The notes: generated from the letters alone by a model not told the origin. DNA of 8,773 bases from a virus (IMGVR_UViG_2671180433_000013); one strand, 5' to 3'; positions 1 through 7,810 are shown, counted from the first letter of the stretch. Translations and numbers: made by a program.

Positions 1-1429
1 AGTACGGCTGAGGCGGGTTCGGTGATCACCCAGTTCAGCCAGGCGCTGGCACAGGGTGTGTTGCGCGGTGAGGAATTTAATTCGGTCAATGAAAGCGGAG
101 ACCGGATCATTCGTGCACTGGCTGCGGGTATGGGCGTGGCCCGTAAAGACCTTAAGGCGATGGCGGACGACGGCAAACTGACGGCGGATAAAGTCGTTCC
201 TGCGTTAATCAGCCAGCTGGGGACATTGCGTGATGAATATGCCGCCATGCCGGAAACGGTTTCCAGTAGTATCACGAAGGTGGAAAACGCCTTTATGGCC
301 TGGGTGGGCGGTGCGAATGAGGCCAGCGGGGTGACGAAAACGCTCTCCGGTGCGCTGAACGGTGTTGCCGGCAATATTGATAATGTGGCCGCGGCAGCAG
401 GTGTGCTGGTTGCTGTCGGGGTTGCACGCTACTTTGGCAATATGGCCTCCGGAGCGATGTCTGCCACGGCAGGACTTGTGACGGCTGCACGTAATGAAGT
501 TGCACTGGCGGAAGCACAGTTCAGGGGAACGCAGATTGCCACGGCGCGGGCAAGGGCAGCCGTGTACCGTGCTCAGCAGGCCGTGGCGGCAGCCCGCGGG
601 ACGGAGATGCAGATTGCAGCAGAGGCCCGTCTGGCGGCCACACAGGAACGCCTGAACAGAAATATTGCTGCCAGAAGCGCCGCCCAGAATGCGCTGAACA
701 GTACAACGGCGGTGGGCTCACGTCTGATGAGCGGTGCGCTGGGACTGGTTGGAGGCGTACCCGGACTGGTGATGCTGGGAGCTGCCGCATGGTACACGCT
801 GTACCAGAATCAGGAACAGGCCAGGGAGTCTGCGCGCCAGTATGCACTGACGATAGATGAAATCGCGCATAAAACGCCATCAATGTCTCTGCCTGAAGCC
901 TCAGATAACGAAGGGCGAACACGGGAGGCGCTGACAGAGCAAAACCGGCTGATTGATGAGCAGGCCAGCCGGGTGAAATCCCTGCAGGAAAAAATCGCCG
1001 GGTATCAGTATGTGCTGGCGAACCCGGGCTGGACGACCGGTGACGGATTCATGATAAACCATCTGACCTCGGTGAAGACCGTAACGGAAGGGCTTGCTCA
1101 GGCAACAGAGCAGCTTGCCGTTGAGCAGTCCCGTCTGGCACAGATGCAGGAAAAAGCGCAGTCCATTCAGGATGTGCTTGCCGGGCTGGAAGACCGTCGT
1201 GTGGCGTTAATTCGTCAGCAGGCGGCAGAGCAGAATAAGGCGTACCAGTCCATGCTGGTTATGAACGGTCAGCATACGGAATTCAACCGTCTGCTGGGGC
1301 TGGGTAATGAACTGCTTCAGCAGCGGCAGGGACTGGTGAATGTGCCGTTACGGCTGCCACAGGCCACTCTGGATGATAAACAGCAGAGTGCCCTGACAAA
1401 AACAGAGCGTGAGCTGGCCCTGTCCAGAC
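1..1429 (+). CDS. H: Tail tape-measure protein, internal fragment (copy A); open from the window edge and ending at a single N at 1430
   Basis: Frame 1 is open from base 1 (the track's GTG at 22 is not a real start). The translation is near-identical to the copy at 1556..2984 and continues the same protein family as the gpH-like C-terminus at 3421..4736. The frame breaks at N (1430) and reads SRXFFG-stop through the junction. Confidence 0.6.
1..1429 (+). repeat. Repeat copy 1 of the tape-measure segment (window-truncated at its 5' end)
   Basis: 1..1429 aligns base-for-base with 1556..2984 (offset 1555) apart from scattered and clustered substitutions. It ends at the same ...CTGTCCAGAC breakpoint. 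Confidence 0.9.
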
Positions 1430-1441
1430 NCTTTTTCGGAT

Positions 1442-2984
1442 AATGCGGCCCTGTTTGCCCGTTCGGCTGCCTCGATGCGTGAATATGGTTACAGTGCTGA
1501 TGATGTGCTGAAGGTGACGGAGGCCATTTCCACGGGGCTGAAAATCTCCGGTGCCAGTACGGCTGAGGCGGGTTCGGTGATCACCCAGTTCAGCCAGGCG
1601 CTGGCACAGGGTGTGTTGCGCGGTGAGGAATTTAATTCGGTCAATGAAAGTGGTGACCGGATCATTCGTGCACTGGCTGCAGGCATGGGCGTGGCCCGTA
1701 AAGATCTGAAGGCGATGGCGGACGACGGCAAACTGACGGCGGATAAAGTCGTGCCCGCGTTAATCAGCCAGCTGGGGACATTGCGTGATGAATATGCCGC
1801 CATGCCAGAAACGGTCTCTGACGGGATCACAAAGGTGGAAAACGCCTTTATGGCCTGGGTGGGTGGTGCGAATGAGGCCAGCGGGGTGACGAAAACGCTC
1901 TCCGGCGTGCTGAACGGTGTTGCCGGACAGATTGATAATGTGGCAACAGCCGTGGGGGCACTGGTTGCCGTCGGGGTTGCCCGGTACTTTGGCAATATGG
2001 CCTCCGGAGCGATGTCTGCCACGGCAGGACTTGTGACGGCTGCACGTAATGAAGTTGCACTGGCGGAAGCACAGTTCAGGGGAACGCAGATTGCCACGGC
2101 GCGGGCAAGAGCAGCCGTGTACCGTGCTCAGCAGGCCATGGCGGCAGCCCGCGGGACGGAGATGCAGATTGCAGCAGAGGCCCGTCTGGCGGCCACACAG
2201 GAACGCCTGAACAGAAATATTGCTGCCAGAAGCGCCGCCCAGAATGCGCTGAACAGTACAACGGCGGTGGGCTCACGTCTGATGAGCGGTGCGCTGGGAC
2301 TGGTTGGAGGCGTACCCGGACTGGTGATGCTGGGGGCTGCAGCATGGTACACGCTGTACCAGAATCAGGAGCAGGCCAGGGAGTCTGCGCGCCAGTATGC
2401 ACTGACGATAGATGAAATCGCGCATAAAACGCCGTCAATGTCTTTGCCTGAAGCCTCAGATAATGAAGGACGAACACGGGCGGCGCTGACAGAGCAGAAC
2501 CGGCTGATTGATGAACAGGCCAGTCGGGTGAAATCCCTGCAGGAAAAAATCGCAGGATATCAGTATGTTCTGGCGAACCCGGGCTGGACGACCGGTGACG
2601 GATTCATGATAAACCATCTGACCTCGGTGAAGACCGTAACGGAAGGGCTTGCTCAGGCAACAGAGCAGCTTGCCGTTGAGCAGTCCCGTCTGGCACAGAT
2701 GCAGGAAAAAGCGCAGTCCATTCAGGATGTGCTTGCCGGGCTGGAAGACCGTCGTGTGGCGTTAATTCGTCAGCAGGCGGCAGAGCAGAATAAGGCGTAC
2801 CAGTCCATGCTGGTTATGAACGGTCAGCATACGGAATTCAACCGTCTGCTGGGGCTGGGTAATGAACTGCTTCAGCAGCGGCAGGGACTGGTGAATGTGC
2901 CGTTACGGCTGCCACAGGCCACTCTGGATGATAAACAGCAGAGTGCCCTGACAAAAACAGAGCGTGAGCTGGCCCTGTCCAGAC
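1442..2984 (+). CDS. H: Tail tape-measure protein, internal fragment (copy B), running into a 21-N gap
   Basis: Frame 2 ORF reads [49 protein letters not shown]..., then repeats the copy-A sequence with a few substitutions. It ends at ...TERELALSR directly before the N run at 2985..3005. No start codon is needed because it is an internal fragment. Confidence 0.6.
1556..2984 (+). repeat. Repeat copy 2 of the tape-measure segment
   Basis: Direct repeat of 1..1429. It is preceded by 125 bp (1431..1555) of tape-measure sequence that copy 1 lacks only because the window starts there. Confidence 0.9.
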
Positions 2985-3005
2985 NNNNNNNNNNNNNNNN
3001 NNNNN
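2985..3005. other. Run of 21 N (scaffold or assembly gap); a single N also sits at 1430
   Basis: Literal n characters in the sequence, both placed exactly at the repeat-unit breakpoint after ...CCAGAC. Confidence 0.95.
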
Positions 3006-3420
3006 CTGGCGAACCCGGGCTGGACGACCGGTGACGGATTCATGATAAACCATCTGACCTCGGTGAAGACCGTAACGGAAGGGCTTGCTCAGGCAACAGA
3101 GCAGCTTGCCGTTGAGCAGTCCCGTCTGGCACAGATGCAGGAAAAAGCGCAGTCCATTCAGGATGTGCTTGCCGGGCTGGAAGACCGTCGTGTGGCGTTA
3201 ATTCGTCAGCAGGCGGCAGAGCAGAATAAGGTGTACCAGTCCATGCTGGTTATGAATGGTCAGCATACGGAATTCAACCGTCTGCTGGGGCTGGGTAATG
3301 AACTGCTTCAGCAGCGGCAGGGACTGGTGAATGTGCCGTTACGGCTGCCACAGGCCACTCTGGATGATAAACAGCAGAGTGCCCTGACAAAAACAGAGCG
3401 TGAGCTGGCCCTGTCCAGAC
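3006..3420 (+). repeat. Partial repeat copy 3 (last 415 bp of the unit) immediately after the N gap
   Basis: 3006..3420 matches 2570..2984 and 1015..1429. It differs by an A-to-V substitution (KAYQSM to KVYQSM). Unique sequence follows from 3421. Confidence 0.9.
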
Positions 3421-4736
3421 TGAAAGGGGAGGAAAAAGAGCGTGCCCGGCTGGGGTATGCGGCGGATGACCTTGGTTTTGTGGGGGATTCGTATCAGGAG
3501 GCGAGACAGCGTTATATCAGTAATGCTCTGGAAGCCTGGCGTAATAACGAGGCGAACAAACCTAAATCCCGGGGTGGAAAATCAGAGACGGAAAAAGCGG
3601 AAGACAGTTTTTCCCGGCTACTGAAGCAGCAGAAAGAGCAACTGGCACTGGCGGGTCAGAATACAGAGCTGGCGAAGCTGAAGTACCAGACTGCGCAGGG
3701 CGAACTGAAAACCCTGACGGAGATGCAGAAGCAGGAACTGCTGCGTAACGCGACCCTGATTGACCAGCAAAAAATCCGGGAACAGTTGCGATCCCGGGAA
3801 GAGACCCTGAAGAATGATAATGTGGCTGCGCGTGCATCAAATGAAGCCGAACTGCTGGGGTACGGGCAGGGAGAACGAGCCAGGGAACGCATGCGGGAGT
3901 TGCAGCAGATCCGCGACAGCTTCCGCCAGAAGGATGCGGACCTTCAGTCTCAGTATCAGACCGGGGATATCAGTGAGGATTTTTACAGACAGGCACGGGC
4001 ACAGAACGCGCAGTATCTGAGCGAACGCCTTAAGGACCAGGCAGCCTTTTATGCCGAATCGGATGTGCAGCGTGCGGACTGGCAGAAAGGGCTGCAGGAG
4101 GGGTTCAGTAACTGGGTGGATAATGCGTCCGATTACGCCTCACAGGCAGCACAGCTTGCGACGGAGGGTATCTCAGGGATGGTGAATAACATCACGGAGA
4201 TGCTGAACGGGAATAAAGTGGAATGGCGCAACTGGGCCTCATCAGTGCTGCAGGAAATATCAAAAGTTCTTATGAATGCCGCGATTGTCAACGGGATCAA
4301 GACGGCGGCAAACAGTATGTCCGGTGCAGGAGGATTTATTGGCAGCATTGGTGACTGGCTGGGCGGTGCGGTGGCCAATGCAAAAGGCGGCGTGTATACC
4401 TCGGCAAACCTGAGCGCGTACAGCAACAGTATTGTGGATACGCCCACGTACTTTGCCTTTGCAAAAGGGGCCGGGCTGATGGGGGAAGCAGGACCTGAAG
4501 CCATAATGCCCCTGACCCGGGCGGCGGATGGCTCGCTGGGGGTGCGAGCGGTGGGCAGTATGAACGGTAGTGCGGGCCTGGTGTATTCCCCGGTCTACCA
4601 TATCGCCATTCAGAATGACGGGACTAATGGCCAGATAGGGCCGGAGGCGGCAGGCAGCCTTGCGCAACTGATTGACCAGCGGGTGCAGGCGGTGATGCTG
4701 TCCATGCGACGTGACGGAGGAATACTGAGTGGCTGA
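3006..4736 (+). CDS. H: Tail tape-measure protein, C-terminal portion (lambda gpH-like); stop TGA at 4734..4736
   Basis: Frame 0 ORF. The first 415 nt repeat the end of copies A and B, then unique sequence follows (SRLKGEEKERARLGY...). There is a long charged, coiled-coil-like stretch and a C-terminus with NDGTNGQIGP and RDGGILSG, recalling the lambda gpH C-terminus (NDGTNGQIGP...RDGG). Position immediately upstream of M/L/K/I fits. Confidence 0.8.
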   Translation: MANPGWTTGDGFMINHLTSVKTVTEGLAQATEQLAVEQSRLAQMQEKAQSIQDVLAGLEDRRVALIRQQAAEQNKVYQSMLVMNGQHTEFNRLLGLGNELLQQRQGLVNVPLRLPQATLDDKQQSALTKTERELALSRLKGEEKERARLGYAADDLGFVGDSYQEARQRYISNALEAWRNNEANKPKSRGGKSETEKAEDSFSRLLKQQKEQLALAGQNTELAKLKYQTAQGELKTLTEMQKQELLRNATLIDQQKIREQLRSREETLKNDNVAARASNEAELLGYGQGERARERMRELQQIRDSFRQKDADLQSQYQTGDISEDFYRQARAQNAQYLSERLKDQAAFYAESDVQRADWQKGLQEGFSNWVDNASDYASQAAQLATEGISGMVNNITEMLNGNKVEWRNWASSVLQEISKVLMNAAIVNGIKTAANSMSGAGGFIGSIGDWLGGAVANAKGGVYTSANLSAYSNSIVDTPTYFAFAKGAGLMGEAGPEAIMPLTRAADGSLGVRAVGSMNGSAGLVYSPVYHIAIQNDGTNGQIGPEAAGSLAQLIDQRVQAVMLSMRRDGGILSG

Positions 4737-5773: not shown

Positions 5774-6517
5774 ATGACACAGACAGAATCAGCGATTCTG
5801 GCGCATGCCCGGCGGTGTGTGCCTGCGGAGTCGTGCGGCTTCGTGGTGAGAACGCCGGAGGGGGAGCGGTATATCCCTTGTGTGAATATCTCTGCAGAGC
5901 CGGAGGCGTATTTTCGTATTGCACCGGAAGACTGGCTGCGGGCAGAGATGCAGGGGGAGATTGTGGCACTGGTCCACAGTCATCCCGGTGGTCTGCCCTG
6001 GCTGAGCGAGGCCGACCGGCGGCTGCAGATAAAAAGTGCACTGTCCTGGTGGCTGGTCTGCCGGGGGGAAATTCATAAATTCCGCTGTGTGCCACATCTG
6101 ACAGGACGGCGCTTTGAGCACGGGGTGACGGACTGTTACACGCTGTTCCGGGATGCCTGCCATCTGGCGGGAATTGATATGCCGGATTTTGAGCGTGAGG
6201 ATGACTGGTGGCGCAACGGTCAGAACCTGTACCTGGACAATATGGAGGCGACTGGTTTTTACAGGATTTCCCTGCCTTCCGCACAGCCTGGCGATATCCT
6301 GCTGTGCTGCTTTGGTGCTTCGGTACCGAACCATGCCGCCATATACTGCGGCAACGGTGAGCTGCTTCACCATCTGCCTGAACAACTGAGTAAACGGGAG
6401 AGGTATTCTGAAAAATGGCAACGACGAACGCATTCTGTCTGGCGTCACCGCCACTGGCACGCATCTGCCTTCACGGGGATTTACAACGATTTGGCCGCCG
6501 CCTCAGCCTGTATGTGA
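5774..6517 (+). CDS. K: Tail assembly protein K (lambda gpK homologue) with JAMM/MPN and NlpC/P60 motifs, 247 aa
   Basis: MTQTESAILAHARRC...; JAMM-type motif HSHPGGLPWLSEAD (HxH-x7-S-x2-D); NlpC/P60-type catalytic Cys (GVTDCYTLF) and His (PNHAAIYCG). ATG at 5774 is 5 nt after the L stop. The 3' end overlaps I by 103 nt. Confidence 0.85.
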   Translation: MTQTESAILAHARRCVPAESCGFVVRTPEGERYIPCVNISAEPEAYFRIAPEDWLRAEMQGEIVALVHSHPGGLPWLSEADRRLQIKSALSWWLVCRGEIHKFRCVPHLTGRRFEHGVTDCYTLFRDACHLAGIDMPDFEREDDWWRNGQNLYLDNMEATGFYRISLPSAQPGDILLCCFGASVPNHAAIYCGNGELLHHLPEQLSKRERYSEKWQRRTHSVWRHRHWHASAFTGIYNDLAAASACM

Positions 6518-7095
6518 ACACGGCAGCGGAAGCCATTCGCGCCCTGTCGATGCAGATGCCGGGCTTTCGCCGTCAGATGAACGAAGGCTGGTACCAGATA
6601 CGTATTGCCGGTGATGACACGGCACCGGAGGCGGTGTATGCCCGTCTTCACGAACAGCTGGGTGAGGGAACGGTCATCCACATTGTGCCGCGACTGGCCG
6701 GGGCCGGAAAGGGTGGACTGCAGATTGTGCTGGGGGCGGCAGCCATCGTGGGCTCTTTCTTCACGGCCGGAGGCTCGATGGCGTTATGGGGTACAGCCCT
6801 GAGTGCCGGTGGTTTTTCTGCCACCACGATGCTGTTTTCACTGGGGGCCAGCATGATACTGGGCGGTGTGGCCCAGATGCTGGCCCCGAAGGCAAAAACA
6901 CCGGAGTACAAAAGCACGGATAACGGTAAACAGAACACGTACTTTTCCTCCCTGGATAACATGATTGCCCAGGGTAACCCGATGCCGGTGCCTTACGGGG
7001 AAATGCTGGTTGGCTCCCGCCGTATATCCCAGGACATCAGTACCCGTGATGAAGGCGGGGGCGGAAAGGTCGTGGTTATCGGGCGGCAGGGGTAA
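6415..7095 (+). CDS. I: Tail assembly protein I (lambda gpI homologue), 226 aa
   Basis: MATTNAFCLASPPLARICLHGDLQRFGRRL... matches the lambda gpI N-terminus (..ARICLYGDLQRFGRR..). Conserved hydrophobic Gly/Ala-rich segment and C-terminal ..KQNTYFSSLDNM..VVVIGR. GGAGAGG lies about 10 nt upstream of ATG 6415. Stop TAA at 7093..7095. Confidence 0.85.
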   Translation: MATTNAFCLASPPLARICLHGDLQRFGRRLSLYVNTAAEAIRALSMQMPGFRRQMNEGWYQIRIAGDDTAPEAVYARLHEQLGEGTVIHIVPRLAGAGKGGLQIVLGAAAIVGSFFTAGGSMALWGTALSAGGFSATTMLFSLGASMILGGVAQMLAPKAKTPEYKSTDNGKQNTYFSSLDNMIAQGNPMPVPYGEMLVGSRRISQDISTRDEGGGGKVVVIGRQG

Positions 7096-7134
7096 AAAGA
7101 ATAAAAAAATCCCGCAGTGTTGCGGAACTGCGGG
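7094..7134 (-). terminator. Intrinsic terminator oriented for the minus strand (3' end of the sodC transcript): 8-bp GC-rich stem plus U-tract
   Basis: Inverted repeat CCCGCAGT-gttgcgga-ACTGCGGG at 7111..7134. On the minus strand the hairpin is followed by ATTTTTTTATTCTTTTT (plus-strand A-run 7094..7110). There is no T-run after the hairpin on the plus strand. Confidence 0.6.
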
Positions 7135-7252
7135 AGCGTTACGAAGATTGAGTGTAAGGAATTATTCTTATGTCACGACAAAAACATTAACTCAGAGAGG
7201 GAGGATGTGCCGTTCTTTTCAGGGAGAAAGGATTTATCGTCCTGAGGAATAA

Positions 7253-7276
7253 AGGTAAGGGGCCCGCACCTTACCT
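7253..7276 (-). terminator. Stem-loop just 3' of the sodC stop (possible proximal terminator or stabiliser)
   Basis: Inverted repeat AGGTAAGG-ggcccgca-CCTTACCT. On the minus strand it is followed by a weak TTATT tract. Confidence 0.3.
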
Positions 7277-7282
7277 GACTGA

Positions 7283-7810
7283 TTATTGAATGATGCCGCA
7301 GGCCATTCTCGCACCACCACCGCCCAGGGGCTCCGGATGGTCATGATGGTTATCACCGCCAGCATGAAGCATGAGAGAACGCCCTTTAATCTCTTTTAAT
7401 GAGTTCAGTCTCGGGGCCAGGACCGGGTAGTTCGCTTTTCCGTCATGCGTCACGAACAGCGCAGGGAGGTCGCCCGGGTGTCCATCCGGAGACCAGGGGC
7501 CAAGATGTTTGCCGGTGTTTTTCGGGTCAAAGTGACCGCCAGCCGATAATGCTGCGACCGGTTTTCCGTCTTTCAGTGCCGGGGCGCAATTTCCTTTTTC
7601 GTGCACATGAAAACCATGAATGCCTTCAGACAGAGAGTGAAGGGCTGGTGTGAACAGCAGACCGTAGGGGGTCTCCTGAATGGTTATTTTTCCAATGCTG
7701 ACTTCTTTTCCGTCAGCACTGACAAGGTTCATTGGGACTTCCTGTTCTGCTGCGTATCCGCATGATGCTGCTGTCAGCATGGCAATGGCAGCAATGATTT
7801 TACATTTCAT
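7283..7810 (-). CDS. sodC: Periplasmic copper/zinc superoxide dismutase (SodC family), 175 aa, prophage moron
   Basis: Minus-strand ATG at 7810..7808 is preceded by GAGGG at about -6 (the track ORF extends further upstream without support). The N-terminus is signal-peptide-like ([23 protein letters not shown]). Cu,Zn-SOD signature blocks are present: [46 protein letters not shown]. Collinear with E. coli/Salmonella SodC. Stop TAA is at 7285..7283. Confidence 0.9.

Follow-up and report, generated by a model that had tools for sequence, protein, structure and literature searches.

The gene at 7283-7810 on the minus strand of the analysed window, an 8,773-nucleotide stretch of viral DNA (IMGVR_UViG_2671180433_000013), is a complete and intact gene for a Cu,Zn superoxide dismutase, SodC, and its assignment to this family is secure. 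In all probability it is a phage moron, that is a lysogenic-conversion cargo gene, of the prophage sodC-F type of E. coli O157:H7, carried here as the F2 allele. Family membership, exact allele and exact context are all already known, and the gene is in this sense an ordinary one: the copy identifies the window as a piece of a lambdoid prophage of the STEC/EPEC type and leaves the knowledge about the enzyme unchanged.

The open reading frame runs from an ATG at 7810 to a TAA at 7285-7283 and encodes 175 amino acids, exactly within the boundaries given in the initial annotation. The reading as a complete member of the SodC family is borne out by three kinds of matches. The protein covers positions 3-133 of the 133 positions of the Pfam profile Sod_Cu (PF00080) with E=7e-32 and 111 bits (cut-off 28.9), it matches the NCBIfam equivalog NF007628, "superoxide dismutase [Cu-Zn] SodC", over positions 2-172 of 172 with 214.9 bits (cut-off 165), and it aligns with solved bacterial SodC structures from Haemophilus ducreyi (1z9n), Yersinia (2wwn), Salmonella (SodCI, 1eqw) and E. 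coli (1eso) at E-values of about 1e-55 to 1e-62. A protein search for the metal ligands had been set beforehand as a check, and every ligand of both metals was found, none being lost: the Cu ligands H68, H70, H93 and H149, checked in the sequence, are conserved with the solved bacterial SodCs, and the Zn ligands H93, H102, H111 and D114 are in place in the alignment with the same structures. In an alignment with human SOD1, the Cu ligands are the counterparts of H46, H48, H63 and H120, and the Zn ligands correspond to H63 (the bridging residue), H71, H80 and D83. The active-site arginine R168 and the disulfide pair C75/C171 are invariant in five aligned prophage SodCs and in the alignments with PDB chains. 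Two other interpretations of the locus were rejected. A longer open reading frame of 344 amino acids (7283-8317) contains the gene with an in-frame upstream extension antisense to J, and the annotated homologues all have 528 nt. N runs occur elsewhere in the window, but an assembly artefact at sodC is ruled out by the collinearity of the region with hundreds of complete genomes.

At the protein level the product is 100% identical to the protein annotated as SodC in E. coli O157:H7 EDL933 (WP_000649830.1), and this exact sequence is recorded on 977 contigs. The DNA is nearly as invariant: over 7124-7943 the window and the EDL933 copy differ at a single position, 7268, and the cassette at 7096-7943 is up to 99.8% identical to STEC copies, with O121 and O157 strains at 99.1-99.6%. 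At least 80% of the cassette is present in 547 of 5426 complete E. coli genomes, at up to 8 places per genome, and the K-I-sodC-J layout (6400-8673) has counterparts in 540 genomes; two Stx2a-converting phages have it too, with the gene annotated as sodC. The same layout is also annotated in EDL933 and in Sakai Sp4. SodC-F1 and SodC-F2 of O157:H7 differ only at nucleotide 335, which specifies leucine in F1 and proline in F2 (D'Orazio et al. 2008, PMC2569942); since codon 112 of the window is CCG, the gene is the F2 allele, whereas the copy of phage Stx2_EH2201 is F1. Residue 112 adjoins the Zn ligand H111 and is proline here but leucine in F1, SodCI and SodCIII. Among species-representative genomes of other genera (Serratia, Pseudomonas, Pragia and Leminorella) we found chromosomal sodC genes only, with 61-68% identity and no prophage context. 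In this genome set the nearest relatives outside Escherichia are about as close as the chromosomal SodC of E. coli (61%), and a donor lineage of the phage gene is therefore not evident. The features of the region are collected in Table 1.

Table 1. Coordinates of sodC, of its signals and of the flanking features, counted from the first letter of the window.
Feature	Position	Strand	Remarks
Tail assembly gene I	6415-7095	+	Lambda_tail_I, E=1.8e-16; convergent with sodC
Intrinsic terminator	7094-7135	-	9-bp GC-rich stem at 7110-7135, 8-nt loop, U7AUUCUUUUU to 7094
Conserved 3' module, distal sodC 3'UTR	7096 to about 7200	-	also in PhiR5_1 and Sakai Sp15, which lack sodC at this junction
Post-stop hairpin with weak U-tract	7253-7276	-	weakened by the substitution at 7268
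sodC coding sequence, SodC-F2 allele	7283-7810	-	175 codons and TAA; Pro112 codon CCG at 7475-7477
Signal peptide, aa 1-20	7751-7810	-	signal peptidase I site A20|A21; mature protein of 155 aa
Relaxed lipobox AASC, aa 14-17	7760-7771	-	Cys17, followed by Gly18
AT-rich divergent sodC/J spacer, presumed sodC promoter	7811-7943	-	133 bp, 39.8% GC
Shine-Dalgarno sequence GAGGG	7815-7819	-	4 nt 5' of the ATG; read from the sequence
Tail tip gene J, 5' part, truncated	7944-8673	+	FNIII-A_GpJ, E=5.9e-41; divergent from sodC
End of an IS66-family element, interrupting J	8674-8773		begins GTAAGCG; 96.5% identity to IS66-like tnpA regions in many E. coli genomes

Around sodC, Pfam identifies lambda-type tail genes on the plus strand in the order M, L, K (JAB and NlpC/P60 domains), I and J; the FNIII-A domain match of gpJ is carried by 7944-8726. 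These flanks bear out the earlier placement of the gene, antisense between I and J, convergent with I and divergent from J. A comparison of its composition with that of the flanking tail genes had been suggested, and sodC is lower in both GC (53.0% versus 56-60%) and GC3 (50.6% versus 62-73%). The spacers on either side of sodC have a GC fraction of 0.40-0.44, and the AT-rich upstream region that had been claimed does exist, with its low GC content (Table 1) compared to the tail genes. At the same I-J position sodC is missing in close relatives, including PhiR5_1, many Stx1a and Stx2c phages and the Sakai prophages Sp15, Sp14 and Sp11, which have a 240-bp spacer instead. This patchy presence, the deviant composition, the ribosome binding site of its own and the downstream terminator all speak for the moron reading.

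On the 5' side, the predicted ribosome binding site was located at 7819-7815. A strict scan for the sigma-70 consensus over 6800-8200 found no promoter, and a relaxed scan returned weak candidates only, with 8 of 12 positions matching, which we do not count as evidence; the best of these was TTGGTA-16-TAGGAT with an upstream TG, from 7929 to 7902. By analogy with Salmonella sodCI we also looked by eye for a repeat resembling a PhoP box 5' of sodC and saw nothing convincing. The promoter activity of the upstream region rests on a published fusion of the 299 bp 5' of the ATG to lacZ, which was active and RpoS-independent, the rpoS data being given as "not shown" in that paper (PMC2569942). The spacer at 7811-7943 is identical to that of the EDL933 copy, and the J-coding part of the 299-bp fragment carries a few differences. 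The promoter presumably lies within this fragment, and sodC would be transcribed from it, in or just beyond the 133-bp spacer, against the direction of the phage late operon.

Two hairpins follow the gene. The proximal one, directly after the stop codon, has a predicted stability of -12.4 kcal/mol (z -0.75) in the window compared to -17.4 kcal/mol (z -3.55) in the EDL933 copy; it is weaker because the substitution at 7268 breaks its stem. On the plus strand this position is A here and C in EDL933 and Stx2_EH2201, and it interrupts a stem of 10 bp. The distal hairpin is the strong minus-strand terminator that had been noted before, and its presence stands: its predicted stability is -16.1 kcal/mol with z = -4.25, and none of 200 shuffled sequences was as stable. 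It works on the minus strand only, since the plus strand has no T-run after the stem. Within 7097-7123 the window departs from EDL933, Stx2_EH2201 and PhiR5_1 in the terminator loop, which has 6 nt fewer here, and in the A/T tract next to it; the 9-bp stem is unchanged. The transcript would end at the post-stop hairpin, at the strong terminator beside the end of I, or at both. Such an end would keep antisense transcription out of the tail genes, and the antisense orientation together with the strand specificity of the terminator would insulate these genes from the transcription of sodC. Late transcription modified by Q would read through on the other strand, as judged from the biology of lambda.

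The initial annotation had treated this terminator as part of the insert and had proposed to compare the I-J junction with prophages that lack sodC. We used PhiR5_1 as the comparison phage, whose I and J genes are about 94% identical to those of the window and which has no sodC. Homology between the two continues past the stop codon of I through the terminator to about 7200, breaks there, and resumes at the start codon of J. On the sodC strand the shared module reads GTTAAT...GTCGTGACATAAGAATAATTCCTTACAC... to the U-tract. As this module of about 100 bp (7096 to about 7200) is common to phages without sodC, the event is best described as an exchange of cassettes in which sodC makes use of a resident terminator. 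The absence of sodC from the other prophages was thereby confirmed, but the terminator does not appear to have been imported with the gene, and a simple insertion does not describe the junction, because the terminator module is common to both arrangements. Judged by these alignments, the gap between I and J appears to be an exchange slot, bordered by the terminator module and the start codon of J, that is occupied by sodC in some phages and by a short antisense non-coding unit in others.

Which of the two occupants came first is a separate question. It is possible, though on balance doubtful, that sodC is the older occupant and that the 240-bp spacers replaced it; "inserted" would then be the wrong word, which concerns the history of the locus only and leaves its function unchanged. 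Neither variant is a simple indel of the other, each having unique sequence between the module and the start of J, and Fels-1 carries sodCIII in the same slot, which would agree with an old presence of sodC. On the other hand, the GC3 of sodC is below that of the tail genes, sodC is missing at this junction from the majority of the matching phage records and E. coli genomes, and tail operons of the lambda type are generally compact. The direction of the exchange is inferred.

The spacers without sodC contain signals of their own. They measure 240 bp in PhiR5_1 (2197-2436) and in Sakai Sp15 (3192-3431, both in positions of the respective records) as well as in Sp14 and Sp11, and most Stx1a and Stx2c phages without sodC have an I-J spacer of the same size. 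On the antisense strand of PhiR5_1, a promoter-like sequence, TTCACA-16-TATAAT, with 11 of 12 consensus matches lies directly before the module, from which an RNA of about 95 nt is predicted. Many of the complete E. coli genomes that were sampled contain the unit of promoter, body and terminator from this spacer (query 82-242) at 97.5-98.1% identity and without annotation. The Hfq CRAC peaks EcOnc22, EcOnc23 and EcOnc24 are homologous to each other (Tree et al. 2014, Table S2, PMC4104026), and EcOnc22 was seen as an RNA of about 85 nt on a northern blot and was destabilised in a delta-hfq strain (PMC4104026). We placed the three peaks inside the 240-bp I-J spacers of Sakai Sp15, Sp14 and Sp11, respectively, in antisense orientation and 22-83 nt from the start of J. 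The segment that bears the peaks is the part replaced by the sodC cassette and is missing from the window. No EcOnc peak is listed in Table S2 for the sodC-bearing spacer of Sakai Sp4 (PMC4104026). Rfam scans by E-value over 6900-8100 of the window and 2150-2480 of PhiR5_1 returned matches at chance level only (archaeal snoRNA models, and MicX with 21 bits against a gathering threshold of 75). On the tail-gene strand, the sodC-less spacers carry a terminator-like hairpin 5' of J, with a 10-bp stem followed by TGTTTTTGTG (PhiR5_1 2371-2394, plus strand; Sp15 3242-3265). This hairpin overlaps the EcOnc22 Hfq peak, which is on the opposite strand, and it is missing from the sodC-bearing window. 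Among known phage RNAs, AgvB and AsxR were rejected as the shared module: they are located 3' of PR' and their sequences are unrelated. The Pas sRNAs were set aside as well: PasA, PasC and PasD are neighbours of the Q, lysis and esterase genes, and neither I-J nor sodC is mentioned as a context in their description (bioRxiv 10.64898/2026.05.13.724894).

Given these RNAs, the module at 7096 to about 7200 could itself be an Hfq-binding regulatory RNA, derived from the 3'UTR of the sodC mRNA or transcribed alone, so that the locus would encode an enzyme and a riboregulator. The module is kept in spacers with and without sodC while the rest up to J is swapped, it is preceded by the near-consensus promoter (11 of 12) in PhiR5_1, its GC-rich stem with a U7 tail has the form of the usual Hfq-binding 3' module, and the Hfq CRAC peaks EcOnc22, 23 and 24 fall into I-J spacers without sodC, with an Hfq-dependent stability of EcOnc22 (PMC4104026). 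Still, we regard this as unlikely. The EcOnc22-24 peaks sit J-proximally, outside the shared module, in the segment that is missing here, the sodC-bearing spacer of Sp4 has no listed peak, the window has other sequence where PhiR5_1 carries its promoter-like site, the predicted fold of the 3'UTR is no more stable than that of its shuffles (z -0.28), and there was no match in Rfam. Accordingly low is the probability we give to a functional, Hfq-dependent regulatory RNA that would be released here as a fragment of the sodC mRNA 3'UTR, and to I-J as a conserved riboregulator locus that exchanges its cargo. The shared module would be of wider interest only if such a regulatory function of its own were true. 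The preferred reading is that the module serves as the resident terminator of whichever cassette occupies the slot.

That the enzyme is secreted, as had been proposed, is supported by a predicted Sec-type signal peptide with a cleavage site. It consists of an n-region with K2 and K4, a hydrophobic core at residues 5-16 with a mean hydropathy of 2.2 in the h-region, and the site G-Y-A|A with G and A at positions -3 and -1. A lipobox is present in relaxed form only: a relaxed pattern of the PROSITE style fits residues 7-17, whereas the strict pattern L[AS][GA]C fails because position -3 is alanine. The initial annotation had left open whether the region LTAASCG is a site for signal peptidase I or an imperfect lipoprotein site. 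This question was already answered in favour of both, since both processing routes were shown experimentally: the signal peptide can be cleaved either between residues 20 and 21, by signal peptidase I, or at the lipobox AASC, by signal peptidase II, according to LipoP and fractionation (PMC2569942), and the G/A at -3/-1 and the mature length of 155 residues are as published. SodC-F1, which has the same signal peptide, partitions into soluble periplasmic and membrane (detergent) fractions, and F2-tagged strains were reported to behave similarly (PMC2569942). We consider it very unlikely that the product is essentially a lipoprotein anchored in the outer membrane and that the soluble form is an artefact of overexpression. 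The relaxed lipobox at residues 7-17, the lysines K2 and K4 of the n-region, the glycine at +2, which predicts sorting by Lol, and a detergent-phase fraction obtained from plasmid-expressed and chromosomally tagged protein alike (PMC2569942) would agree with a lipoprotein, but the strict lipobox L[AS][GA]C is unmatched, the sequence G-Y-A|A downstream of it is a good site for signal peptidase I, and chromosomally tagged SodC-F1 was split between soluble and membrane fractions (PMC2569942). With dual processing as the preferred reading, the precursor of 175 residues would be exported via Sec; one part would be cleaved after Ala20 by signal peptidase I and give the soluble, dimeric periplasmic enzyme of 155 residues, and the other part would be lipidated at Cys17 and retained at the membrane. 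The enzyme would bind Cu and Zn and dismutate periplasmic superoxide, by which the lysogen would be protected from exogenous oxidative stress.

The prophage that carries the gene is itself damaged. Homology to J does not extend beyond 8673, which leaves the gene with about 243 codons, and the prophage, or at least its tail operon, is defective because J is cut by the IS66-family element. Further irregularities lie in the tape-measure (H) region at 1-4736, where there is an N at 1430 and an N run at 2985-3005. Three segments of this region repeat one another in part, with a period of 1555 bp; they are 94-100% identical and joined at N runs, and the repeats comprise 1-300/1556-1855 and 1015-1314/2570-2869/3006-3305. 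They look like a scaffolding or assembly artefact from near-identical prophage copies rather than a real tandem duplication. The sodC region is unaffected by the interruption of J and by these repeats and is collinear with complete genomes. It is hardly credible that sodC is the silent, decaying cargo of a dead prophage: the IS66-family element in J, the N runs and repeated segments of the tape-measure region and the substitution in the proximal hairpin would fit such a decay, but the open reading frame is undamaged and matches an expressed allele exactly, the upstream spacer is identical to that of the EDL933 copy, and defective prophages typically keep their cargo genes.

That phage cargo can harden enteric pathogens against oxidative killing is textbook knowledge, for which prophage sodC genes serve as an example. 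Several properties of the sodC-F genes have been published. Chromosomally tagged SodC-F1 and SodC-F2 accumulate in O157:H7 lysogens during logarithmic, stationary and anaerobic growth, unlike the chromosomal SodC, the results on the co-regulation of F1 and F2 being given as "data not shown", and deletion of sodC-F lowered survival in 250 µM H2O2 in vitro (PMC2569942). SodC-F1 is dimeric, about three times as active as the monomeric SodC and resistant to proteinase K and EDTA, and its melting temperature is higher by 10-14 degrees (PMC2569942). Its activity of 19380 U/mg was measured on the Leu112 protein, unlike the Pro112 protein encoded here (PMC2569942), and the dimeric state and the activity, known from F1, would extend to the Pro112 F2 protein by analogy. 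Expression in the lysogen, RpoS independence, protection against H2O2 and dual processing are properties of the published sodC-F1/F2 genes and of the gene family that the copy in the window probably shares.

The closest known system is the SodC-F1/F2 pair of O157:H7 (D'Orazio et al. 2008, BMC Microbiol 8:166), with which the window agrees in its protein, in the gene layout and upstream spacer, and in the signal peptide with its AASC lipobox. Compared to the SodC-F copy of EDL933 it differs by the substitution at 7268, by the terminator loop shorter by 6 nt and by I and J flanks that are only about 96-97% identical. SodCIII of Salmonella phage Fels-1 lies in the same I-J slot and, like the gene described here, runs antisense to the tail genes, but it shares only 60% of its amino acids with the protein described here, has unrelated non-coding flanks, lies 53 bp from the stop codon of I and has a signal peptide free of cysteine. 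SodCI of Salmonella phage Gifsy-2, described as dimeric and as contributing to virulence in the literature to which PMC2569942 refers, is prophage-borne as well and antisense within the block of tail genes; it differs by its identity of 59% and by its slot, which is flanked by gene L and by a lom-like gene that lies downstream of M. The I-J spacers of Sakai Sp15, Sp14 and Sp11 with EcOnc22, 23 and 24 use the same slot and the antisense strand and end in a module homologous to 7096-7200, whereas the segment with the Hfq peaks is theirs alone and the window has the sodC cassette in its place. The chromosomal SodC of E. coli (1eso) has the fold family and the ligands in common with the phage enzyme, but its identity to the mature protein is only about 61%, and it is a monomeric, RpoS-dependent and fully soluble protein of lower stability that is made only in the aerobic stationary phase (PMC2569942).
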